The notes beneath the pieces were generated by a model, which had not been told where the DNA came from, did no database searches, and was given only the letters and a program-made list of their open reading frames with translations. Position numbers and translations under genes: made by a program. From a virus (Duplodnaviria > Heunggongvirae > Uroviricota > Caudoviricetes), in IMG/VR virus record IMGVR_UViG_2687453623_000004: a stretch of DNA of 64,000 nucleotides; one strand, 5' to 3'. Below, one piece after another: positions 33,485-60,829 of the stretch (the first letter of the stretch is position 1; each line of letters begins with the position of its first letter).

Positions 33485-34734
33485 TTATGGGAAACCTGAA
33501 TGAAACAGAAAAGTGGGAAGAAAATATCTATCAACTGGAGACATCAGATCCGGTTCTGGGTGGTGCAGACGGGATATCAAATCGAGCCCCCCGGCAACTG
33601 GCAAACAGGACGAAATGGCTGAAGAAGAAAACGGAGGAAGCCGCACAGTCACTGGCTGAACACGTACGTTCCCGTAACCACCCGGACGCGACACTGACAG
33701 CTAAGGGGTTCACCCAACTGAGCAGTGCCACCAACAGCACCTCTGAAACGCTGGCCGCCACACCAAAAGCGGTCAAGGCTGCATACGACCTGGCAGCCGG
33801 CAAGGCGCCTGCCAGCCACACTCACCCGTGGAGTCAGATAACGGGAGTGCCTGCGGCTTCACTGACGGCAAAAGGCACCGTACAACTGAGCAGCGCCACG
33901 GACAGTCAATCAGAAACTGAGGCTGCCACGCCGAAGGCGGTCAAGGCTGCATACGACCTTGCAGCCGGCAAGGCGCCCGTCAGCCACACTCACCCGTGGA
34001 GTCAGATAACGGGAGTGCCTGCTGCCTCGCTGACGGCAAAAGGCACCGTACAATTGAGCAGTGCCATCAACAGCACGTCTGAAATACTGGCCGCCACACC
34101 GAAAGCGGTCAAGGCTGCATACGATCTGGCAAACGGAAAACAACCGGCAGATGCCACGCTCACTGCTCTGGCAGGACTTGCCACTGCAGCAGATCGGTTG
34201 CCTTATTTTACCGGAGCAGACCGCGCAGAGCTGGCAACCCTTACAGCTATTGGTCGCGCTATTATCGCTAAGGGCAGTATAAAAGATGTCCTCAATTACC
34301 TTGGTTTGGGGGAAGGCTCGGCGCTGCCCGTTGGTGTACCTGTTCCGTGGCCCACTGCCACACCGCCAGCAGGCTGGTTAAAGTGCGACGGGCGCGCCTT
34401 TACAAAAGAACAATATCCTGTTCTGGCCAGAGTCTACCCGACCCTCCGTCTTCCCGATTTACGCGGTGAGTTTATCCGTGGATGGGACGACGGGCGAAAA
34501 GTGGATACAGGGCGCGATCTGCTTTCACGGCAGGATGGTACAAGTTTTTCTCATTACGCAGGTAATTTTGACATTGGGTCTGGTCATTCAATCAATAACT
34601 ATGACCAAATCGTTGACAACCAACCTGGATTCTCCCGTTTTTCATTTGCAGGTCCTTCGCGAGGCGATGGGGTTAATTATGTGACCATTCGTCCCCGTAA
34701 CATTGCGTTTAATTACATCGTAAGGGCGGCATAG
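33481..34734 (+). CDS. Tail fibre protein S (constant part plus currently expressed C-terminal cassette Sv1)
   Basis: 417 aa; repeated TAKGxxQLSSAxxSxSE...[16 protein letters not shown] units; C-terminus ...[14 protein letters not shown]. Confidence 0.75.
   Translation: MIMGNLNETEKWEENIYQLETSDPVLGGADGISNRAPRQLANRTKWLKKKTEEAAQSLAEHVRSRNHPDATLTAKGFTQLSSATNSTSETLAATPKAVKAAYDLAAGKAPASHTHPWSQITGVPAASLTAKGTVQLSSATDSQSETEAATPKAVKAAYDLAAGKAPVSHTHPWSQITGVPAASLTAKGTVQLSSAINSTSEILAATPKAVKAAYDLANGKQPADATLTALAGLATAADRLPYFTGADRAELATLTAIGRAIIAKGSIKDVLNYLGLGEGSALPVGVPVPWPTATPPAGWLKCDGRAFTKEQYPVLARVYPTLRLPDLRGEFIRGWDDGRKVDTGRDLLSRQDGTSFSHYAGNFDIGSGHSINNYDQIVDNQPGFSRFSFAGPSRGDGVNYVTIRPRNIAFNYIVRAA
34289..34314 (+). 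promoter_or_regulatory. Putative Gin/Hin-type crossover site A inside S
   Basis: TCCTCAATTACC-TT-GGTTTGGGGGAA resembles hix/gix half-sites (ACC-TT-GGTTT core); begins a ~210-bp segment repeated at 34740 and, inverted, at 36130-36346. Confidence 0.45.
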
Positions 34735-34753
34735 AAACGTTGGTTTGGGGGAA
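34730..34753 (+). promoter_or_regulatory. Putative crossover site B (direct) immediately after the S stop codon
   Basis: CATAGAAACG-TT-GGTTTGGGGGAA. Confidence 0.4.
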
Positions 34754-35206
34754 GGCTCTGCATTGCCTGTTGGTGTACCGGTTCCATGGCCCACCGCCAC
34801 ACCGCCAGCAGGCTGGTTACAGTGCAACGGAGCTACGTTCACCAAAGAACAATATCCTGTTCTGGTCAGAGTCTACCCGACCCTCCGTCTTCCCGATTTG
34901 CGCGGTGAGTTTATCCGTGGATGGGACGGTGGTCGCAAGGTTGATACCGGGCGTGCGCTACTTTCATTTCAGGAAGGGACTATCGTATCCGGTTTTGATG
35001 ATAATGATACCGGAGATATCAGTTCGCTCGGCTCTACACAATACGGATTTGGTGACGCTTTAACCTCTAATCAACTGGGGGTCTTAAATGGCAAAAAGTG
35101 GATATTTGATGCATCCTCTAAAGGTGCACAAAGATATGACTGGTGGGCTTATGTATCAGCTCGCCCCCGCAATATCGCATTTAACTATATCGTGAGGGCG
35201 GCGTGA
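34745..35206 (+). other. Silent alternative tail-fibre C-terminal cassette (Sv2), no upstream constant region in frame
   Basis: Homologous to the S C-terminal region (PVGVPVPWPTATPPAGWL ... [14 protein letters not shown]) but diverged in the middle; lacks an independent start context. Confidence 0.5.
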
Positions 35207-35212
35207 TACCGT

Positions 35213-35827
35213 TCAGCCGGCAAGCGCCAGTGGCGCTTCCGGCCAGCTGATTTCAGGTGCCTTGCTGATATCCAGTGCGTTCAGCTCGTCGATATAATCC
35301 AGCACGGCGTTCAGTTTTGCCGTTTCTTCTGGTTTCAGACTGCGACCAGCACGCAGTTTGAGGTTGATAAGATCGACGGACGCCATCGCCTGTTTCACCC
35401 GTTGCTGGCGTTGCTGTCTGGCAACCTCCAGTTCTGCGGCTCGCTGCCGTTCAGTATCGGTTACCCACGCCTCACCGTTCCAGGTATCCCATGGCGTGGC
35501 TGGCTGTTTTGTGGTGGTGTCCGCCGGGTAATCACCCGGTTGGGTAATCAGAACGGGGTTACCGTTCTCCGTGCTGTATACCGTCTCGCCGCGGTGATCA
35601 GGCACATGCTCCCACCCGTTCAGCGTGGCAGTCCGGCAAACCACGTAACCCGAAATTGCTTCCGGCGGTGCATCGGCGCACGAATGTGCCGGAGTACCCA
35701 CCCCAAGGGCGAGATACTCCACAGAGGATGAGGTGTATTCCCGGGTTTCCTCGTCATAGTGATATACAGTGATATCGCCCGCTACAGTGGCGATACCGTT
35801 TTCATCCAGAACTGCAGTGTTACTCAT
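35213..35827 (-). CDS. Tail fibre assembly protein (U'-like), inverted orientation
   Basis: 204 aa; C-terminus ...ISWPEAPLALAG typical of Tfa family. Confidence 0.6.
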   Translation of the reverse strand: MSNTAVLDENGIATVAGDITVYHYDEETREYTSSSVEYLALGVGTPAHSCADAPPEAISGYVVCRTATLNGWEHVPDHRGETVYSTENGNPVLITQPGDYPADTTTKQPATPWDTWNGEAWVTDTERQRAAELEVARQQRQQRVKQAMASVDLINLKLRAGRSLKPEETAKLNAVLDYIDELNALDISKAPEISWPEAPLALAG

Positions 35828-36309
35828 TAAACTGCCCTCACAATGTAATTAAGTGCAATGCTACGGGGTCTGACAGTGATACCCTTCGCATACCCGCTTC
35901 TGATAGAGGTCAGAATAGTAGCCTGCATACCATTGTCTGACATTGCCACGACAGGATCGCTGAATGTTGTCCCGTCCGGCATTTTAAAGCTGCCCTCACG
36001 AAGGTCTGTAATGGAATCTTCATTGTTGAATCCCATGCCGACTATCCCCGAGGTTCCCGTAGTGTCCTGGTTATAATAATCCAGCATTGCTGTTCTTAAC
36101 AGCGTTGCCCCTTGTGCGGACAGCAACTTACGTCCTGTATCAACTTTGCGCCCGTCGTCCCATCCACGGATAAACTCACCGCGTAAATCGGGAAGACGGA
36201 GGGTCGGGTAGACTCTGGCCAGAACAGGATATTGTTCTTTTGTAAAGGCGCGCCCGTCGCACTTTAACCAGCCTGCTGGCGGTGTGGCGGTGGGCCACGG
36301 AACAGGCAC
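35827..36309 (-). other. Inverted alternative tail-fibre C-terminal cassette (Sv3)
   Basis: Begins PVPWPTATPPAGWLKCDGRAF..., ends ...RPRSIALNYIVRAV; its 5' ~210 bp is almost identical to S at 34301-34512 in inverted orientation. Confidence 0.6.
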
Positions 36310-36320
36310 ACCAACGGGTA

Positions 36321-36346
36321 GCGCCGAGCCTTCTCCTAAACCAACG
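36321..36346 (-). promoter_or_regulatory. Putative crossover site C (inverted)
   Basis: Reverse complement GATAAACG-TT-GGTTTAGGAGAA. Confidence 0.4.
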
Positions 36347-36407
36347 TTTATCTCTCAAATCCTCCCCACATTATCTCAGTACTTTAACCACTCAAAAGGG
36401 AGTATTT

Positions 36408-36983
36408 TTAATGCTGATTGGCTACATACGTGTGTCAACAAATGACCAAAACACAGATTTGCAACGCAATGCATTAATGTGCGCAGGATGTGAACAGATT
36501 TTTGAGGACAAAATGAGCGGAACCAAGTCGGAACGACCAGGCCTGAAACGCGCTTTAAAGTGCCTTAAAAGAGGGGATACATTGGTGGTCTGGAAGCTGG
36601 ATCGGTTGGGTAGAAGAATGAAACACCTCATTGCTCTCACAGAAGAGCTACGCGCAAAAGGTGTCAATTTTCGCAGTCTGACGGATTCAATCGATACCAG
36701 CACTCCGATGGGAAGGTTCTTTTTTCATATGATGGGTGCACTGGCAGAAATGGAGCGTGAACTGATAGTTGAGCGCACGCTGGCTGGACTGGCTGCTGCG
36801 CGAGCACAAGGAAGAGTTGGAGGACGTCGCCCGAAACTGACGAAGGAGCAGCATGAGCAGATCGCAAGATTGCTCCAGAAAGGGTATGACAGAAAGCGGC
36901 TGGCAATTATCTATGATATTGGACTGTCAACGATCTACCGCTATCACCCTGTTGGGACTGTCATAACGCAACCTGAAATGTAA
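36408..36983 (+). CDS. gin: Serine DNA invertase (Gin/Hin/Pin family)
   Basis: MLIGYIRVSTNDQNTDLQ ... catalytic Ser motif and C-terminal HTH; start at internal Met of the track ORF. Confidence 0.85.
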   Translation, partial: LMLIGYIRVSTNDQNTDLQRNALMCAGCEQIFEDKMSGTKSERPGLKRALKCLKRGDTLVVWKLDRLGRRMKHLIALTEELRAKGVNFRSLTDSIDTSTPMGRFFFHMMGALAEMERELIVERTLAGLAAARAQGRVGGRRPKLTKEQHEQIARLLQKGYDRKRLAIIYDIGLSTIYRYHPVGTVITQPEM

Positions 36984-48338: not shown

Positions 48339-50785
48339 TTAACCGTCATGCATCATGCTGGCACGGGCGCGCGCTCGTTTATCCCGCTCGTATTTTTCGA
48401 GCGCATCCTGTAACTGGCGGTCGAGCTGTGTCCCCGGCGCAGTACCACCCGTCAGGCTGATGTGATATTCGTTTTTACTCTGGTCTACATAAGAGCGGCC
48501 AGCCGGTGCCGTGACCGGCTGATAAGCCTGATAACCTGCATAAGAGCTGGTCGCCGGAATATAACCACCGCTGCCATACGTGGCGGCTTGAGTTCTGGCG
48601 GCGGTCTGGTCAAGTGTGTCTGACTCTTTGTTGATAACACCGAGTTTTTCCAGTACCCAGTCAATACCACTGCGCAGTTTGTTGAACGCATTAAGCGGCA
48701 GCATCAGCGCGTCAGCCAGTGCCTGCCCGAACATGACGCCCGTGTCACGGCAACGGTTCAGGGTGTCCTGGGTGGCTTTGACCGGGGCAATCAGGTTTTT
48801 AAACCACTGCCACGCGGCCTGTAACTTTTCACCCAGCCAGTCAAACACCGGTTTAAGTGGCGTGAACAGTTCCCCCACCGGCGTAAATGCCGCTTTCAGC
48901 CCTTCCACCACACCGCCAAAGAATGCGCTGACAGGCTCCCAGTATTTACGGATAAGCAACGCCCCGGCGACAATGGCGGCCACCACGGCCACAACCGGCC
49001 AGCTAATCGCCCCGATGGCGGTCATAACAGCACTGCCAACCGTCGTGAAGATTGCCCCCATTGCGCCTGCTGCCGCGATGATGGCATTGATGCCGGTGAT
49101 AACCGGCCAGGCTACGAGGCCAATGGCACCGATGACACCAATCAGTGCCAGTGCACCACCGACAATGATGCCGATGGTTGACGCCAGTGATTTGTTTTTC
49201 TGGATCCAGCCGTCGAGTTTTAACACATACTTTGTGGCCGTCTGCGTGAGATTACGCAGTGCGCCTTCCTGCTGGTCAAACAGGTCAGTCCCCACCGCCT
49301 CATAAGCGGACTGAAACTCCTTAAAGTCACCGCCGAGGTTATCCTGCATGATTTTAACCAGCTCTTCCGTTTTACCGTCCGAGGCTTTCAGCGTGGCGGT
49401 CAGCTTATCCAGTTTTCCGCTTGCTGCCGCTGCCAGTAAAACGTTCGCTGATTTCAGGGCTTCCTCACCAAAAATGGTTTTAAGGTATTCCCCCTTCTGA
49501 GACGTTCCCAGCTTGTGTTTATCAAAGCTGGCCTGAATCTCTTTCAGAATGGTGAACAACGGACGCATATTTCCCTTTTTGTCCGAGGTTTTAACGCCAA
49601 GCTCTTTGAGTGCATCCCATGCTTTTCCAGTCGGTGCCTGTAATCGGGTGACAACGGCACTACTACCCGTACCCGCCATTGACCCCCTGATGTTATTGTC
49701 ATGCAGCACACCTGTCATGGCCGCTGCCTGCTCAAGACTTACGCCTGCCGTCCTCGCAACCGGCCCGAGGTAAGTCAGTGCATCACTGAGTCCCTGAAAA
49801 TCAGCGCCGACTTATTCATCGTTGCAGACAACACGTCGCCCACATGGCTGACATCATCATTTGACAGTTGAAAGGATGCCTTAGTCCCCAGCAACAGTTG
49901 CGCGTTTTCTTCCATCGACCGCTGATTCGCCAGTGCCATATTCAGCGTGACCGGCGTTGCCGCCTGAATAGCCGCAGCATCTCCACCCGCTTTCGCAATG
50001 ATAATCTGCGCACCGGCCGCATCATCCGCCGAGGCGGCTGTGTTGTCACCGAGCTGGCGCGCCTGTTTGCGGAGTGCGGTCATTTCGGCGGAGTCTTTTG
50101 CCACTCCGAGCACGGCCTGCAATTCTGAGTTTTTCTGCGCAAACTCATAACCGGGCATCAGCAGCTTAACTCCGGCCATCGTTCCCGCAGCAGCAATCCC
50201 CGCACCGGCAGCGCCCACTGAGGCCATATTTCCGGCCAGTTCCTTTCCTGCCTGATAACGCTGTTTGACTGCGTTAAGTTTTGCCTGTTGTACACTGACA
50301 CGCGCCAGCGCGTCACGCTGACGGTTAAGCTGTGCGGTGGTTTCACTGATACGGTTTTTCAGTCCCTGCTCATCATGTGCAAGATTGCGGGTATTAATTC
50401 CCACAGCGGCCAGTTCTCGCTGCTGGCGTTTAACGGAATCTGTCAGGCGGTTATATTTCGCCTGTAAGTCCTCCGCCGCACGCTTTGCGGATTCCAGCAC
50501 TTTCGCCTGAGCACGGGTCGGACGTTCGGTGTTTTTAAACTGTGTGGCAAGGGCTTCGGCTTCCTGTCGAGCCTTTTCAAATGCATGACCAGTCACGGCG
50601 AGCTGTGCACTGGTCTTGCGGAATCCCTCAATACGGGATGCGTGACCGTTCAGCTCGCGCAGTGATTTTTGTGTTTCCCGGATATCCCCCGACAGCGACT
50701 TGCTCGCTGTACGGATGGATTTAAACGGGCGGGATGCCTGGTCAACAGCCCTGAGCAATACCTGTAATTTTACATTGTTACTCAT
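48339..50785 (-). pseudogene. T: Tail tape measure gene T, split by a frameshift into 336-aa and about 487-aa reading frames
   Basis: Two minus-strand ORFs in different frames overlapping only at 49778-49811, which contains an AAAA run; combined length about 812 aa versus roughly 815 aa for P2 T (from memory). Confidence 0.6.
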
Positions 50786-53294: not shown

Positions 53295-53771
53295 CTATAT
53301 GTTACTGGGATTATTAAAAGGGATAATACTGGCCAATCCGTCATCAACATCAAGACCATAGGTAACCGCTATTTCTGCCAGAGAGTTACCACACTTTTGT
53401 CGCAGTTTAAAAAGGGCTCGCTCAAGTATGGATATTTGAACAGGATGATCAAGTTGGATAAAGTGAGGGGAGCCAACGCTGTCACAGAATTCTTGGCATG
53501 CTTTTCTCATTTTCCTTAATTGTTTTGCTAAATGTGAATCGCTCGGCAAACCTTGTAGGACTTTAGTCAATTCAGATCTAATGTTGATAACACTCGAAGT
53601 GCAATGACTAGCACCCTCCATGTCGACAGGATTGAAAAGAACGCGCTTGTCCTCAAGAAAAATGACGATCTTCTTCGCTTCGTCAGTTTCTATTATTGGA
53701 GCATTCCACTGAATCCCGAATATGGGACAGCTAAGGCCAGTAATATTTTTATAGATTTGTTCAAATTTCAA
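53295..53771 (-). CDS. Cargo protein of unknown function (158 aa) in the G/FI hotspot
   Basis: AT-rich; apparent TTG start 7 nt after a strong AAGGAG; own terminator; no family recognised. Start codon position by my count is 53770-53772 (one-nt discrepancy with the track). Confidence 0.5.
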   Translation of the reverse strand: MKFEQIYKNITGLSCPIFGIQWNAPIIETDEAKKIVIFLEDKRVLFNPVDMEGASHCTSSVINIRSELTKVLQGLPSDSHLAKQLRKMRKACQEFCDSVGSPHFIQLDHPVQISILERALFKLRQKCGNSLAEIAVTYGLDVDDGLASIIPFNNPSNI

Positions 53772-54030
53772 AAGTCACTCCTTGGATGGACTCTGAGCAT
53801 ATAAAACGCCATACTGATAAACGGACTCGGTTCAAGTAATCTGTTAGATAGCATAACTCGGAACCACTGTAAAAATAGTTGTTAACATACCTAAAAGTGA
53901 CAGCGGAGGCAAGATTCCCTCAGCCGGAGCGATAAATTAGGCATAAGTTATACACACATTAGTAATAATCACTAAAGATATTCTAATTTTTTATGCCGAC
54001 TTAATATGATTTCCCGTCAATCAGGTTAGC

Positions 54031-54211: not shown

Positions 54212-54589
54212 ATGAAATCAATTTTAGAGGTTTTTACTCAAGGAAATACTAAAGAAAAACTGGCTGTTATCGCTGATCTCACAACCATTGCGGGAATATC
54301 GATAGCAACTATTATTGCTGGTTTGTTAACCCTAGTTGCAAAAACAGATAAACTAGATGTTGGAAATCTGTTTGGAGTTGTCATAATATCTCTGCTCGGA
54401 TTGGCTGGTGTTTGCTGTTTTATGGCCCTATTTATTTGGGTTATAACCCAAATGTCTAAACCATGGGGAACACCTCGGGGGATTCAGTCCTTAGTTAAGT
54501 GTGCTATTTCCCTTATCTTTATCTGTATTTTTTTGCTGGCTGTCTTTACATTTTATGAGGTTATTTCTTCGATGAGAATACTCTATTGA
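54212..54589 (+). CDS. Small membrane protein (125 aa, three predicted helices), unknown function
   Basis: AT-rich; hydrophobic stretches IAGISIATIIAGLLTLVA, VVIISLLGLAGVCCFMALFIWVI, AISLIFICIFLLAVFTF; own promoter and terminator. Confidence 0.5.
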   Translation: MKSILEVFTQGNTKEKLAVIADLTTIAGISIATIIAGLLTLVAKTDKLDVGNLFGVVIISLLGLAGVCCFMALFIWVITQMSKPWGTPRGIQSLVKCAISLIFICIFLLAVFTFYEVISSMRILY

Positions 54590-54977: not shown

Positions 54978-55642
54978 AGCCTGATTAGGTTTTACTCTGT
55001 GCCATAGATGAGTAATCTCATACCAGAGCTAATACGATTTATTGCGGCATTTCTGGCCATTCTATATCCGGAGCATTTTCCGGCTGAACGCGATTCAGTA
55101 GCACACGGTATTTTTTCCAGTGTGTCAGGCTTAACTTTTCTTCCTCGGTAGCCATATCTAAATCGACAGCATCCTGCAGAGTGCCAATAATTTCACCGGC
55201 ATATGCAATCTGCTCTTTCTTCTGAGACTCCGCCGCTCTGACAAGTGCATCATGCTCTGCATTCTCATCATTCACCCACGCATTTCCGTTCCATTTCTGA
55301 TAATCCCCATCCGGGGAAATGGCTGTCACGTCTGGAGGTAATGCACCAAGTTCAGAAATATAAATGGCTGCTCCCGTTTTCGTTTCGTAGACAGTCTTTC
55401 CGCGATGATCTTCCATCAACTCCCATTTCATTTCATCTGCATTGAAAACGGCTGCATAACCAGCAGGAATATCAGGTGGTGCAATATCTGTACTGTTTGC
55501 AGGCAGACCTGTATGCGGCGGAATATATGCATCACTTTCGCCAATAAACTCATTGGTTGCGTATTACCGTGAAGGAGATCGGTGAGTAACATCGATGGAG
55601 ATCGGTTCGTGTCACTTTCACAGAACCGTTTTTAAATTACCT

Positions 55643-56392
55643 TCACTGATCTCCTTCGGTCAACGGAGATTGTATTTTCCGCATTGATTCTCCTTTAAGT
55701 TCGATCTTGATACTGCCATGAACCAGTCGATCTAGGATGGCATCCGCATGTGTGGAGTCTCCGATCATTTTGTACCAGTTTTCCACCGGCAACTGGCTCA
55801 CTACGATGATTGAGCCTCGTTGGTACATCAGATCCACTATTTCCAGCAGGTCGCTACGCTGTTCTGATGAGAGAGGTTCCAGCCCCCAGTCATCCAGAAG
55901 CAGCAGATCGCTATTATTCAGCCTGGTCAAAAGTTTGCTGTATCTTCCATCAGCATGCCCCTGATAGCACTGTTCCATCAGCGCTTTAAGGCGATAATAG
56001 TAGACCTTGTATCCCTGTCGGCAGGCATTATGACCAAGTGCACATGCCAGGAACGTTTTACCGCTGCCGGTGGCCCCGGTCAGTAAAATATTTTGTTTCA
56101 GGGTTAACCAGTTTCCCTGACTGAGTGAACGGATGAGGGCCCTGTCCAGCCCTCTATTGTTACGATAATCCAGCTTTGATAACTCAGCATTAAGTCTGAA
56201 CCGTGCATGTTTGATCAGACGCTCTGCCTTCCTGTTTTCACGGCAGGTTAGTTCTTCTGCTGTCAGTAATGACAGGCGTTCTTCGAAGCCCAGCTCCTGG
56301 TATGTGCCCGGTTGAGCAAGTTGCTTTTTAAGCGCATCACGGAAGCCGGTGAGTTTAAGTGCGGTCAGTTGTTCGTAAAGATGATTCATCAT
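55643..56392 (-). CDS. istB: IS21-family helper ATPase IstB
   Basis: 249 aa; Walker A LTGATGSGKTF. Confidence 0.85.
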   Translation of the reverse strand: MMNHLYEQLTALKLTGFRDALKKQLAQPGTYQELGFEERLSLLTAEELTCRENRKAERLIKHARFRLNAELSKLDYRNNRGLDRALIRSLSQGNWLTLKQNILLTGATGSGKTFLACALGHNACRQGYKVYYYRLKALMEQCYQGHADGRYSKLLTRLNNSDLLLLDDWGLEPLSSEQRSDLLEIVDLMYQRGSIIVVSQLPVENWYKMIGDSTHADAILDRLVHGSIKIELKGESMRKIQSPLTEGDQ

Positions 56393-56403
56393 TGGATCCC
56401 GTA

Positions 56404-57945
56404 TCAGTGGTAATACTCACTGCCGCGTACGTTTTCGTGTTCCATCGTGGATAACAGATCTGGTTTTGGATCCTGAACAGGTTGTTTATCCAGACCTTTT
56501 TCCAGGATCGATTTAATACCTGACAGACGCCATACCTTTGTTTTCAGAGCTCTTGCACATGCTGCATTAAGTCTGGCTTTACTGTATTTTTTATGAAGGT
56601 TCAGGAGTCCAAGGCAGAAGCGATAGCTTTGTTCCGGATGTGGACGAGAGTTCAGTATATGAAGCACATAACTATGAGTTTCACTGCCTATGTGCCCCGC
56701 CCATTCCAGAAGACGCTCTGGCGTCCAGGTGGCATGCTGTCGATGAGCTTCAGGCATGTGCTCGTTGCGGGTACTGTAGCCATAAGTACGCTTGCGCGGG
56801 TGCACAGCAACCTCCTGCCCCTGATTGAAGAGTCTTACCAGTTCTCCGGAGATCCATGCTTCCAGTTGCTGGCCTAACAGCGAACATGGAACCGAGTAGT
56901 AATGTTTGTCGATTTCCACGTGGTAATCGGCATGAACTCTGACTTTCTTCACCAGGGTGTAACTGTAACTGGCTTCAGGAAGAGGCTTCAGTGCGGGTTT
57001 ATCAAGCTGGATGAAGAGTTCTGCACGTGAATAACCCAACTTCTGCATTATTTTGTTATTCAGTCTTTCCAGCAACTCCCGAATGCGCTGATTAAGCGAT
57101 GCAAGGCTGTAGAAGATCTCATGCCTGATTCGGGCCATGATCCAGCGTTCAACAACCTGAACGCCAACTTCAGCTTTGGCTTTATCTTTCGGTTTACGTG
57201 GCCGCGCAGGCAAAACTGCGACATTATAATGCTCAAGCATCTGCTGGTAGGTAGGGTTAACGTCAGGATCATACTTACATGCCCTGGATGTGGCGCTTTT
57301 CAGATTGTCCGGAACAACAAGTTCAGGAACGCCACCCAACCACTGGAAGCAGCGAACATGACTCATCACCCAGTCTTCAAGCTGCTGAGACCAGGTGGCC
57401 TCTGCCCATGTGTAACTTGATGCCCCGAGAACAGCTACGATGACCTGAGCAGTTCTTATTTCTCCGGTCTCAGGGTCGGTAACGCCAACGGTAGGTCCAC
57501 AGTAATCAACGAAAAGTTTTTCGCCAGCTTTATGTACCTGACGCATTGATGGTGAAGTGGTTTTGAGCCATTCACGGTACATCCGGCAGTAATGGTTATA
57601 GCTGTAAAAACCGCCTGGATTACGCTCACAGTATTCTTCCCAGAGTAGCTGCAGCGTCACGCATTTATTACGCAGTTCCCGGTGTACTGTAGCCCAGTCA
57701 GGCAGAGAGTGCTTCTTCATCTTAACCTGGGTCTGAAGGAACGCATGTTTTAGTTTTGTATCATCCCATCCTGTAGGTAAGGGCCACTGCTTTATGCCAA
57801 GTTGAGCCGCCCGATTAGCATATCTGGATACAACGGAAGGGGAGATTGCAAGACTACGACCAATTTGTCGATGGCTGAGTCCAACACCGTATTTAAGCCT
57901 AAGAATTTCTTTAAGTTTTCTCATAGAAATTGGAACTGTTGGCAT
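56404..57945 (-). CDS. istA: IS21-family transposase IstA
   Basis: 513 aa; N-terminal HTH; upstream of istB. Confidence 0.85.
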   Translation of the reverse strand: MPTVPISMRKLKEILRLKYGVGLSHRQIGRSLAISPSVVSRYANRAAQLGIKQWPLPTGWDDTKLKHAFLQTQVKMKKHSLPDWATVHRELRNKCVTLQLLWEEYCERNPGGFYSYNHYCRMYREWLKTTSPSMRQVHKAGEKLFVDYCGPTVGVTDPETGEIRTAQVIVAVLGASSYTWAEATWSQQLEDWVMSHVRCFQWLGGVPELVVPDNLKSATSRACKYDPDVNPTYQQMLEHYNVAVLPARPRKPKDKAKAEVGVQVVERWIMARIRHEIFYSLASLNQRIRELLERLNNKIMQKLGYSRAELFIQLDKPALKPLPEASYSYTLVKKVRVHADYHVEIDKHYYSVPCSLLGQQLEAWISGELVRLFNQGQEVAVHPRKRTYGYSTRNEHMPEAHRQHATWTPERLLEWAGHIGSETHSYVLHILNSRPHPEQSYRFCLGLLNLHKKYSKARLNAACARALKTKVWRLSGIKSILEKGLDKQPVQDPKPDLLSTMEHENVRGSEYYH

Positions 57946-58204
57946 AGGTATCCTTTACCGGAATGGCAAAAGATACAGATCAACACACCTGTGAAGTTCC
58001 AATAACATTGATGGAGATCACTGAATAACAAAATGAGTCAAAAGTGATCTCCATCGATGTTATTCAGCGATCTGTTCAAATGTTATTACCCGATCTCGAT
58101 GGAAGTTATTGAGTGATCTCCTTTCATGAAAATACGCACATTGGTTCCATCAAGTAAATTGAAAACGCGGATAGTTTGTGCTTCTGCACTCATTCTGAAA
58201 GCCA

Positions 58205-60829
58205 TTATGCAAGCCTCACAATATAGTTAAATGCGATGTTTTTGACGGTGTTTTCTGTATTACCTGTAGCATTAACGGTAATAGAGTGCCCGTGTGAGCC
58301 AATAGCAACCGTGTGTGAATGTGCACCAATACCAACCGTATGATTATGTGCACCAATATCTACCGTGTGGGCATGATTCCCGGCAGCTCCTGATGTGCCA
58401 TTAAACGATGGGTTGTCAAAGCCTGTTTTACCGGTTTCACCATTAGTATTGGCATTCCCTCTGTAAATGGTATGTGTATGGTTACCAGTGGTATTAGTGG
58501 TTTTTGTTCCGTAGTTAAACGTACTGACTGTCTTCGTCCCGTAATCAAACGAACTGGTTGTTTTCGTTCCCAAATCCGTATTTGACGCACTGGCACTGTG
58601 AGTATGCGATTTAATCCCGTCCTGTTCCTGTGACAATACGGCACGCCCACTGGCGGGTTTGCCCTTGATTGTCCAGCCGCGCATATCAGGAATAACACCA
58701 GAAGGATAGGCTATAGCCAGTTTCGGATATGCTGCCTTATCAAACGTCTGCCCCTGCATGATTGCATAGCCTGCAGGTGGTGTATCTGATGGCCACGGCA
58801 GCGGAACACCAGGCGGAAACGCTTCAATATTTGCCGAGCCGTCAAATTTTACGCCGTTAATTGTCCTTGCCGTTTTCAGCTTTGTTGCTGTAGCCGCATT
58901 GCCGGACAGTTCACCAGAAAGGCCTGCACTGAATGTCTGTTTTGCCTCCCATGTCTGGGCTTCGTCGATAATTGGTAGCCGACGAATATTGAAGCTACGC
59001 TCCCCAGGATTGCCATATAAGCGGACTGTAAAAAAACGATAGTTGGTTTTGTTTGAAGTGCTGCGCCATACCTGCATTGAACGGGCGACACCTCCGCCTT
59101 CACTGGGGCCAACAGTGATATTTATCAGGTTAGTATCAATGACGCCCCATTCCATCCCATCGGGAATATTGGTCATATCTGAAAGCCTGACAGTTATCAT
59201 GCTGCCCGGTATAAAGTCGTAGGTCTGCCAGTCCAGACTGGATAACCTGTCGGTAACACCGCCGACACCTAATTTAGTGAGTAATGATTTTGAGTTGTAT
59301 ACTTCCGCCCATTCCCCCCAGTCAGTTTCACCGCTGGCGCGGGTTCGCTGAAATGTCCGGTTTTTATAGGCATCCGTTGCTGAAACAGTCGTATATGTCT
59401 GGATATACGATTCAATATCACAACGTTTTTTCACCTCAACTATTGAGCCAACAGCAAGATCTTTAGAGTCGGTGACAGGTGCATTTGTGGCCTGTTTCGT
59501 GACGCTATAAATACCAGGCTTTAAAAGGTCATCAAGATCCCCTGAATAAGTCCATCCCGTGGACTGATACCCAACAGCAATCCAGTCCTCCCATTGTGGA
59601 TTTTCTGCATCCCATGAGGCTGTCAGTCCGCGAATGTACATAGTCCCACTACGGGTGGTATAACGTTGCATCCTCCCATACAGACCGCCTTCAAAGACTT
59701 CCAGAATACCCTGTCCAAAACTCCCTTCCTCCGGGAAATGACGGTCAAATGAGGCTATTGATGTACTGCTATTGCGCCATATTCCCAGGTGTTCCGCACC
59801 ACCTAAAGAATTCAGGTCAATTGACGTGCTTAATGGGCGAGTCCCGCTTGTAATAGCTCTCCATGCACTCCATACAGGACTGACAGGGTTCCATTCTGCA
59901 TCAAGCATCCGAATGTAAATATTACCGGTTCGGGTGGTGTAGCGTTGTGTGCAGTGAAAGCGACCAGCATTGAATACTTCCAGAACCCCATTGCCTTTAT
60001 CTTCAGGGTAACCAGACTCTGGTTTTGCAGTGGATTGTGACGGACATGACCACGTTCCAAGATATTTTTCTTCTGGGCCATAGGAATCAAGATTGTCAGT
60101 GGTTGGAATCATTCCATTGTGTTTCATAAACGTCAGGCTGGTAACGCCAATATTGTCCAGAAAAGCGCCCTTATCTGGAATATCGCCACCGTTCTGGTCT
60201 TTCTGCAGACGTTTCTCAGCATTGTCATAGGCTGCTTTTACTGCCTTTGGCGTTGCTGCCAGCTTTTCACTGGTGCTGTTTGTTGCACTGCTTAACTGAG
60301 TAAAACCTTTTTCTGTCAGCGTGGCGTCAGGATGGCGGCGGGACTGCTCATGCTCTGCGATTTTGTCATCGACGTAATCCTGCGTCGCCATCACTGTGCT
60401 GGCATCAATACTCAGCTCAACAGACGCCACGTTACTGACAATAATGACCATGCGGCAGGTCTGCGCACGCCCGGAGCCTTCAGCCAGTTCAGGCTTATAG
60501 CTTTCTGCCATGTTAGCGACCGCAATCAGTGTTCCGGCATCATCATACAGACCAAGTTCACGCATCCAGAAGCCGCCCACTTCTGGCGGTACAACCAGTT
60601 CAGCCACGATATAGTTTTTATTCTTGTTATCCACGCTGACTTTATTCAGAGCGTGACGCCAGACCTCATGCACCAGTTTCGTCTGACCGGCATCCGGCAC
60701 CGGCAATTTGCCATTACCGTCACCCACGGCCATTGCAGACAGGTTTACTTTTTTCCCGCCGGGGACAGTGGCGGCTGCCAGCTTTGCGGCTCCGGCAGTA
60801 GTGATAACGGTTTTAAATTTCGTGCTCAT
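58205..60829 (-). CDS. H: Tail fibre protein H (mosaic, longer than P2 H)
   Basis: 874 aa; P2-like N-terminus; C-terminal region with GAHxHTV repeats and ...[12 protein letters not shown] end shared with the Mu-like fibre cassettes. Confidence 0.8.

Follow-up and report, generated by a model that had tools for sequence, protein, structure and literature searches.

A P2-like prophage of Escherichia coli carries a single intact copy of the insertion sequence ISEc12 in codon 22 of its tail-fibre assembly gene (tfa), and this copy appears to have arrived by transposition, recently and as a probably neutral second hit to the prophage. We assign this reading a probability of about 0.95. The window is the whole stretch of 64,000 nucleotides that was analysed. 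The prophage lies beside pflB, and its E. coli host is a close relative of the ST131-O25b strain CCUG 73778. The insertion is an ordinary event of prophage decay that has already been annotated, and the element itself is already known.

Identity of the element

On its sequence, the element is ISEc12, a catalogued insertion sequence of the IS21 family, the name being taken from RefSeq annotation and one paper (PMC10711316).

55558..58138, minus strand: complete ISEc12 (IS21 family), 2,581 bp, 100% full-length identity to RefSeq-named copies
56404..57945, minus strand: istA, DDE transposase, 513 aa (Pfam rve and Mu-transpos_C_2; NCBIfam NF033546)
55643..56392, minus strand: istB, AAA+ helper ATPase, 249 aa (Pfam IstB_IS21; NCBIfam NF038214)
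58001..58138, minus strand: left terminal region, beginning with TGCGTATT, with GGAGATC-core sites
55558..55657, minus strand: right terminal region, ending with ...AATACGCA on the element's own strand, with GGAGATC-core sites

RefSeq names identical full-length copies 'IS21-like element ISEc12' and calls the identical IstA and IstB proteins 'ISEc12 family'. The 2,581 bp are also 100% identical to the tssM::ISEc12 copy of ST131 (locus L016 in our sample, duplication ACTGC); a copy with this duplication in tssM has been named ISEc12, and that insertion is fixed in E. coli ST131 clade C (PMC10711316). Boundaries at 55558 and 58138 had been proposed by an earlier note on this DNA, drawn up from the sequence alone. 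They were exact on recomputation, and the element boundaries are identical in 20 other ISEc12 copies examined. Read in the direction istA then istB, the element runs from its left end at 58138 to its right end at 55558. No second ISEc12 copy was found within the 64-kb window.

The long istA gene is followed on the same strand, after a gap of 11 nt, by the shorter istB, which is the gene pair of the IS21 type. IstA scores 310 bits against NCBIfam NF033546 (cut-off 160) and matches the IS5376 IstA structures 8B4H and 8Q4D (E = 3e-13). Its residues D147, D213 and E259 lie in motifs that align with IS5376 IstA and, as candidates for the catalytic residues, would make up the active site. IstB matches Pfam IstB_IS21 (PF01695) with E = 2e-67, scores 270 bits against NCBIfam NF038214 (cut-off 200) and resembles the IS5376 IstB structure 8Q3W (E = 2e-27); it has a Walker A motif, GATGSGKT, at residue 106 and a Walker B motif, LLLLDD, at residue 163. 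The family scores and the structural matches of both proteins bear out the IS21 assignment made earlier. RefSeq places the istB start one codon downstream, giving 248 aa. A biochemical study of ISEc12 transposition was not found in the literature.

The terminal inverted repeats are TGCGTATT at 55558-65 and AATACGCA at 58131-38. They run 5'-TG...CA-3', as the IS21 family requires, and the two element ends align over about 50 nt with one gap. Sites with a GGAGATC core are found in the left end at element positions 18, 41 (CGAGATC) and 87, and inverted at 120; in the right end they occupy window positions 55571-83 and 55594-606, and inverted 55645-57 (2559, 2536 and, inverted, 2485 in element coordinates). 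The outer two sites at each end are spaced 23 bp apart, which is the L1/L2 and R1/R2 layout. When the 64-kb window was searched for GATGGAGATC-type repeats with at most one mismatch, 6/6 matches fell within about 130 bp of the element ends. The multi-site termini that had been suspected are supported by this clustering and spacing, and the repeated end sites are putative IstA-binding sites.

The interrupted gene

58139..58205, minus strand: 5' stub of tfa (P2 gene G equivalent), 22 codons (translation; RefSeq pseudogene)
55039..55557, minus strand: 3' part of tfa, codons 21-192 and stop, containing the whole Caudo_TAP domain
58205..60829, minus strand: intact tail-fibre gene (P2 H equivalent), 874 aa (Pfam Phage_tail_fib, Phage_fiber_2, Collar)

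Excision of the element together with one CATTGGT yields an open frame of 579 nt, in which ...VFNLLDGTN is joined to EFIGESDAY..., and which encodes 192 aa. The restored protein matches Pfam Caudo_TAP (PF02413, E = 3e-40) over residues 72-192. Among Tfa proteins it is closest to the one from Peduovirus P24A7b, with 97.4% identity, while the identity to lambda Tfa is 65.4% over 191 aa, so that the description of the frame as lambda-Tfa-like holds. Of the span 55039-58204 given earlier for tfa, the end stands and the start has to be moved: the ATG lies at 58205-58203, with a one-base overlap with the stop codon of the tail-fibre gene, and the gene covers 55039-58205. The 3' part opens with the duplicated copy, which makes up two whole codons and one base of the next. 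Read-through from the stub into the element is predicted to give a product of 39 aa, and RefSeq lists the stub as a 'tail fiber assembly protein' pseudogene without its C-terminus. Tfa function would be lost through the insertion.

The insertion site

55551..55557, no strand assigned: target-site duplication copy CATTGGT on the right-end side, single in uninterrupted alleles
58139..58145, no strand assigned: target-site duplication copy CATTGGT on the left-end side, single in uninterrupted alleles

A clean insertion with an intact 7-bp duplication had been proposed, a view that would fall if the heptamers proved not to be a true duplication beside an uninterrupted allele. This comparison was made and the duplication is genuine: the rejoined site of 720 nt is 100% identical to uninterrupted alleles, with one CATTGGT, in 10 complete E. 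coli genomes. In the alignment with strain SaT040, the two flanks overlap by precisely the duplicated bases, and about 6 kb on either side of the element is collinear with that genome. The chance of a given 7-mer recurring at a fixed position is p ~6e-5, and the duplication is not due to chance, because the rejoined site matches empty alleles that have a single CATTGGT.

Target duplications in the IS21 family range from 4 to 8 bp. For ISEc12, 7 bp is a minority length and 5 bp the usual one (5 bp, n = 14; 7 bp, n = 3; 8 bp, n = 1 in a sample of distinct insertions), and a 5-bp duplication is described for many IS21 members (PMC10122671, PMC11208146). Identical ISEc12 copies occupy at least 18 distinct sites, each with its own duplication. 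BLAST matches running 6-21 nt beyond the element ends had prompted the idea of a target-site consensus, which was dropped since 20 aligned flanks show no clear motif; in these flanks the duplication weakly tends to end in G or GT.

The host prophage and its decay

48339..50785, minus strand: tape-measure gene T, in which a 1-nt deletion near 49805 leaves two ORFs, of 336 aa and 459 aa
53295..54589, no strand assigned: two intact 'cargo' ORFs between tfa and the sheath gene (Pfam, NCBIfam and PADLOC searches)
53295-53771, minus strand: cargo ORF, DUF6650 (Pfam)
54212-54589, plus strand: cargo ORF, 125 aa, without family match (Pfam, NCBIfam)

CCUG 73778 is collinear with the window over 27.9 kb, with 3 mismatches, and the RefSeq annotation of this region gives the late-gene order ogr-D-U-T-E-FII-FI...G-H-I-J-W-V. 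This agrees with the late order of P2 (ogr, D, U, T, E/E', FII, FI, G, H, I, J, W, V, S, R, lysis, X, L, M, N, O, P, Q). The host prophage, whose integrase end is not part of the window, is P2-like (Peduovirinae) as judged from its late-gene region, and not lambdoid.

The deletion near 49805 changes GGCGGC to GGCGC, and the same T frameshift sequence is carried by SaT040. The prophage was probably defective before ISEc12 inserted, because the frameshift occurs in this genome with an empty tfa site. The suggestion of the earlier note that the prophage is being inactivated while its cargo is retained is consistent with these data in its first part, given a real 1-nt deletion in T and an additional deletion beside the element in strain AH21H052. 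In its second part it is correct in that the two ORFs are intact, but it is descriptive only: neither the PADLOC defence models nor NCBIfam gave a match for them, and Pfam gives DUF6650 alone.

Distribution

Among 5,426 complete E. coli genomes, 1,908 contain ISEc12, and the median copy number is 3. Both junctions of the tfa insertion are found in only four RefSeq records from three strains, namely LS4 (two records), CCUG 73778 and REF1, and RefSeq already annotates the insertion in these records. AH21H052 keeps one junction, and about 7 kb of the late genes adjoining the element are deleted there. Copies at many other loci match the element with 100% identity. By these sequence comparisons the insertion is recent, as had been supposed. 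In the text of the CCUG 73778 genome paper, prophages and insertion sequences are absent.

Proposed history and alternatives

The order of events would be the frameshift in T, then the insertion, then a deletion beside the element in one strain. By analogy with the IS21 family (PMC10122671, PMC11208146), the IstA transposase would bind to the repeats in the two element ends, while target DNA would be captured and bent by the IstB ATPase; repair after a staggered strand transfer would then have produced the 7-bp duplication CATTGGT. With Tfa reduced to a stub of 22 aa, the adjacent intact tail fibre would not be folded or assembled. A polar effect on other tail genes is not expected, because no gene follows tfa in its late operon. 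The element seems to have remained active after insertion, as it would have removed the approximately 7 kb of adjacent late genes in one strain.

It could be imagined that the two CATTGGT copies are coincidental, or that the element arrived through recombination between two ISEc12 copies, so that the flanks were never contiguous. Such rearrangements do happen, as ISEc12 copies without matching flanking repeats exist at two of the sampled loci (L015 and L022). For the tfa site this explanation is scarcely credible, and it is refuted by the 10 empty-site alleles, identical over 720 nt with one CATTGGT, and by the collinearity with SaT040 over about 6 kb per side. Partial survival of Tfa function is also very improbable. 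It would require transcription to continue from the element across its right end into an ORF of 130 aa, which starts at ATG 55431 on the same strand as istA and istB and encodes the entire Caudo_TAP domain (residues 72-192). However, this ORF lacks the N-terminal 62 residues, a stretch conserved in lambda Tfa, no clear Shine-Dalgarno sequence was seen before its ATG, and a frameshifted T would block tail assembly regardless of any Tfa fragment. A promoter and terminator scan around the element gave fewer promoter-like sites than shuffled sequence and none pointing outward from the element end, and was uninformative.

Transposition into a prophage that was probably already defective would probably make the event neutral. 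An adaptive insertion, either because loss of the chaperone was selected, for instance through locking the prophage and its cargo in the chromosome, or because ISEc12 prefers such targets, is an unlikely alternative reading of four independent ISEc12 insertions in tail-fibre chaperone genes, together with the intact state of the cargo ORFs.

This window: P2-like tfa, codon 22
Strain 20377: P2-like tfa, about codon 166
KE47: lambdoid stfR-tfa, about codon 69
PhiR12 lambdoid phages: DUF4376-family chaperone, about codon 30

The affected chaperones belong to two families that are unrelated to each other, Caudo_TAP and DUF4376, and the phages are of P2-like as well as lambdoid type. The PhiR12 phages, which account for one of the four events, form plaques; a search for literature on E. 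coli PhiR12 phages found none. Against an adaptive origin, the T frameshift in the empty-site SaT040 indicates a prophage that was probably already immobile, so that nothing further was gained, and the tfa::ISEc12 allele is rare (four records from three strains with both junctions, versus 10 genomes with the identical empty site). Furthermore, sampling was biased: two of the four chaperone cases come from a search with the tfa flank in the query, and KE47 ranked high partly through a flank match, whereas 10 contexts sampled via the exact IstA protein, without flank bias, include no tfa insertion. Few late genes can be dispensed with, side-fibre and chaperone genes being among them, and survivorship alone can explain the pattern. 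Neither the insertion sites nor the duplicated sequences have a clear consensus. It is doubtful, though conceivable, that ISEc12 disrupts the tail-fibre chaperone genes of temperate phages above chance, via target choice or selection. If such an excess were real, phage host range or fibre display would be switched recurrently by insertion sequences, which would then be more than agents of decay.

Read as a recent and probably neutral second hit, the locus is a textbook case of stepwise prophage decay, with a point frameshift, an insertion and an adjacent deletion, whose order emerges from comparison of sister genomes. As a lineage marker, the tfa::ISEc12 junctions could be of use within the small set of E. 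coli that are relatives of CCUG 73778 (ST131-O25b). The event has little importance beyond careful annotation.

Comparison with known systems

With the IS5376 and IS21 prototypes (PMC10122671, PMC11208146), ISEc12 shares an istA-istB operon for a DDE transposase and an AAA+ helper, TG...CA ends with two repeated transposase sites each (L1/L2 and R1/R2), and a short target duplication. It differs from both in being longer and in having additional inverted sites inside each end, and its proteins are only distantly similar to those of IS5376 (IstA E = 3e-13, IstB E = 2e-27). The interrupted gene resembles those of the Caudo_TAP chaperones lambda Tfa, P2 gpG and P24A7b Tfa in that it directly follows the tail-fibre gene and its start overlaps the stop of that gene; unlike these, it is split after codon 22. 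A close parallel to the whole event is ISEc12 at tssM (PMC10711316), where the same 2,581-bp sequence, with the same IstA (WP_001298859.1), IstB (WP_001016257.1) and termini, has had the same outcome, a clean gene knock-out between the copies of a target duplication. The target genes differ, the duplication here, of 7 bp, is longer than the 5 bp that is usual, and the tfa insertion is restricted to few genomes whereas the tssM insertion is fixed in a clade.

The ISEc12 insertion and its target duplication

Sequence comparison confirms a clean insertion of ISEc12 in the tail fibre assembly gene (tfa), and the interpretation of the earlier note stands with refinements: the host prophage is P2-like, the frameshift in the tape-measure gene T seems older than the insertion, and a 7-bp duplication is atypical but normal for ISEc12. 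The element and its flanks are laid out as follows.

55551-55557: CATTGGT flanking copy, 7 bp
55558-58138: ISEc12 element, 2,581 bp, first bases TGCGTATT, last bases AATACGCA
55643-56392, minus strand: istB (helper ATPase), 249-aa ORF, 11 nt after the 513-aa ORF
56404-57945, minus strand: istA (transposase), 513-aa ORF
58139-58145: CATTGGT flanking copy, 7 bp

Removal of the element and one CATTGGT restores a 579-nt open frame, in which ...VFNLLDGTN is joined to EFIGESDAY..., encoding a 192-aa protein with a Pfam Caudo_TAP domain (E = 3e-40). The tfa ATG lies at 58205 and shares one base with the stop codon of the tail-fibre gene (874 aa) upstream of it; the right boundary proposed earlier is therefore one base short, and the other coordinates are exact. 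The rejoined 720 nt were searched against 5,426 complete E. coli genomes, 10 of which contain them at 100% identity, with a single CATTGGT and the annotation 'tail fiber assembly protein'. Furthermore, E. coli SaT040, which has an empty tfa site, aligns on either side of the element, with an overlap that consists of the duplicated bases and, by coincidence, one further T. At the level of sequence, these uninterrupted alleles prove that the flanks were originally contiguous and that the 7-bp duplication, which the earlier note described as intact, is a target-site duplication.

In a sample of 20 distinct ISEc12 insertions, including that of the window, the duplication is 5 bp in 14, 7 bp in 3 (the window's included) and 8 bp in 1, while it is absent in 2 copies, both rearranged. 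Since 7 bp occurs in 3 of these 20 and duplications in the IS21 family range from 4 to 8 bp, it is an atypical, minority, yet normal length for ISEc12. For many family members 5 bp is typical (PMC10122671, PMC11208146).

Identity and ends of the element

Membership of the IS21 family, as first suggested, is borne out by both proteins and by the repeated end sites. IstA matches NCBIfam 'IS21 family transposase' with 310 bits (cut-off 160) and contains the Pfam domains rve and Mu-transpos_C_2; IstB matches 'IS21-like element helper ATPase IstB' with 270 bits (cut-off 200) and Pfam IstB_IS21 (E = 2e-67), and has the motifs GATGSGKT (Walker A) and LLLLDD (Walker B). The solved IstA and IstB structures of IS5376 are matched with E = 3e-13 and 2e-27. 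Identical copies are annotated in RefSeq as 'IS21-like element ISEc12', and the element is 100% identical to a copy flanked by ACTGC, the published duplication of the tssM::ISEc12 insertion of ST131 clade C (locus L016; PMC10711316). The name ISEc12 is based on these two proxies, the RefSeq annotation and the tssM copy. The element is present in 1,908 of the 5,426 genomes (median of 3 places in each); of the 2,409 records with any match, 2,221 have a best match of at least 99% identity. In many ST131 genomes (hits H1-H25), the best match consists of two pieces over 3,299 bp. At one such locus (L005, 5684-5989), a truncated helix-turn-helix pseudogene adjoins a full ISEc12 copy; the second piece may come from a further, incomplete IS21-family copy.

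The two ends can be aligned over about 50 nt with one gap allowed. As the earlier note had observed, the termini are multi-site: each holds two GGAGATC-core sites 23 bp apart, with further inverted copies. With at most one mismatch, GATGGAGATCRNT has six matches in the 64-kb window, none of them further than about 130 bp from an end of the element. In its repeats, the element follows the L1/L2 and R1/R2 arrangement known from the IS21 family (PMC10122671). The Dam methylation site GATC lies inside every putative IstA-binding repeat at both ends (55571-55657 and 58010-58124). Possibly, Dam methylation might affect recognition of the ends; we know of no report of such an effect in IS21-family elements.

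Proposed mechanism and consequence

By analogy with the family, IstA would bind the repeated end sites and bring the ends together, IstB would assemble on and bend the target DNA, and staggered strand transfer followed by repair would give rise to the duplication (PMC10122671, PMC11208146). The remaining 39-aa read-through product would be non-functional and the tail fibre would not be assembled. A 130-aa internal ORF still spans the whole Caudo_TAP domain; a scan around the element found no expression signal for it. Polar effects on other genes are not expected, since no gene follows tfa in its operon and, in P2, the sheath operon is transcribed from a late promoter of its own.

Insertions in other tail-fibre chaperone genes

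Three further independent ISEc12 insertions lie in tail-fibre chaperone genes (coordinates in each locus's own numbering).

Strain 20377 (L011, 1120-3700): P2-like tfa, about codon 166, 5-bp duplication
KE47 (L012, 1120-3700): lambdoid stfR-tfa, about codon 69, 8-bp duplication
Deposited lambdoid phages PhiR12_1, _2, _2_star and _4 (L026, 3652-6232, PV340551; L027, 3713-6293, PV340549): DUF4376-family chaperone, about codon 30, 5-bp duplication

The PhiR12 phages form plaques, and a full ISEc12 copy occurs in 4 phage-database records, all at one common site. Together with the window's tfa, these cases could suggest a true target preference of ISEc12 for such genes. This is unlikely, however, because the 20377 and KE47 insertions came from a search query containing the tfa flank, with the rank of KE47 raised partly by the flank match, because none of ten contexts sampled without this bias lies in a chaperone gene, and because these genes are among the few dispensable late genes. 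The insertions may instead reflect tolerance or sampling bias.

Order of events in the prophage

48339-50785: T, 1-nt deletion near 49805 (GGCGGC to GGCGC), split into ORFs of 336 and 459 aa

The T deletion was scored against an intact 815-aa allele. SaT040, whose tfa lacks the element, does not differ from the window across the deletion position; the most economical order on these sequences is therefore frameshift first and ISEc12 later, and the prophage was probably already defective when the element landed. Both junctions of the tfa insertion occur only in four RefSeq records of three strains, LS4 (two records), CCUG 73778 and REF1. Aligned over about 12.4 kb of the prophage, SaT040 and the window differ at only two positions. 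SaT040 has one extra AC unit at 53952, between the cargo ORFs, and a C-run one C shorter at 59314 in the tail-fibre gene H, which is annotated as frameshifted there; slippage or a sequencing error could account for this.

In strain AH21H052 (L015, NZ_CP196264, 6201-8781), ISEc12 still has its right-end junction with tfa, but its left end now borders a truncated lysozyme gene, and about 7 kb next to the element are missing (tfa stub, H, I, J, W, V, S, R and lysis genes). This looks like an adjacent deletion made by ISEc12 itself, indicating that the element stayed active and decay went on. The earlier proposal that frameshift and insertion together inactivate the prophage is consistent with these data in that the frameshift is real and decay continued, with the frameshift being the older event.

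Host prophage and known relatives

Nearly base for base, the window agrees with the ST131-O25b strain E. coli CCUG 73778 (PMC7355845). By the annotation of that strain it contains two prophages.

About 180-37,000: Mu-like prophage, between ycaL and aroA
About 46.4 kb (ogrK) to past the window end: P2-like prophage, adjoining pflB

At the end of the Mu-like prophage, beside a serine-recombinase gene (about 36411-36983), some 1.6 kb (34512-36130, region 34301-36347) between inverted repeats about 210 bp long have the opposite orientation in CCUG 73778; this resembles a G-segment/Gin-type tail-fibre switch in its other position. Between tfa and the sheath gene lie two intact ORFs, encoding a DUF6650 protein and a 125-aa product without family match; neither matched defence models or NCBIfam families, and 'retained cargo' is descriptive of their being intact.

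ISEc12 and its tfa insertion are already in public annotation, with tfa pseudogene fragments annotated around the element in LS4, CCUG 73778 and REF1. ISEc12 interrupts the equivalent of P2 gene G, with which the V-W-J-I-H-G block ends. Once restored, the protein shares 97.4% identity with Tfa of Peduovirus P24A7b and 65.4% with that of lambda; it is therefore lambda-Tfa-like as a protein, as the earlier note had it, but its prophage is P2-like and not lambdoid.
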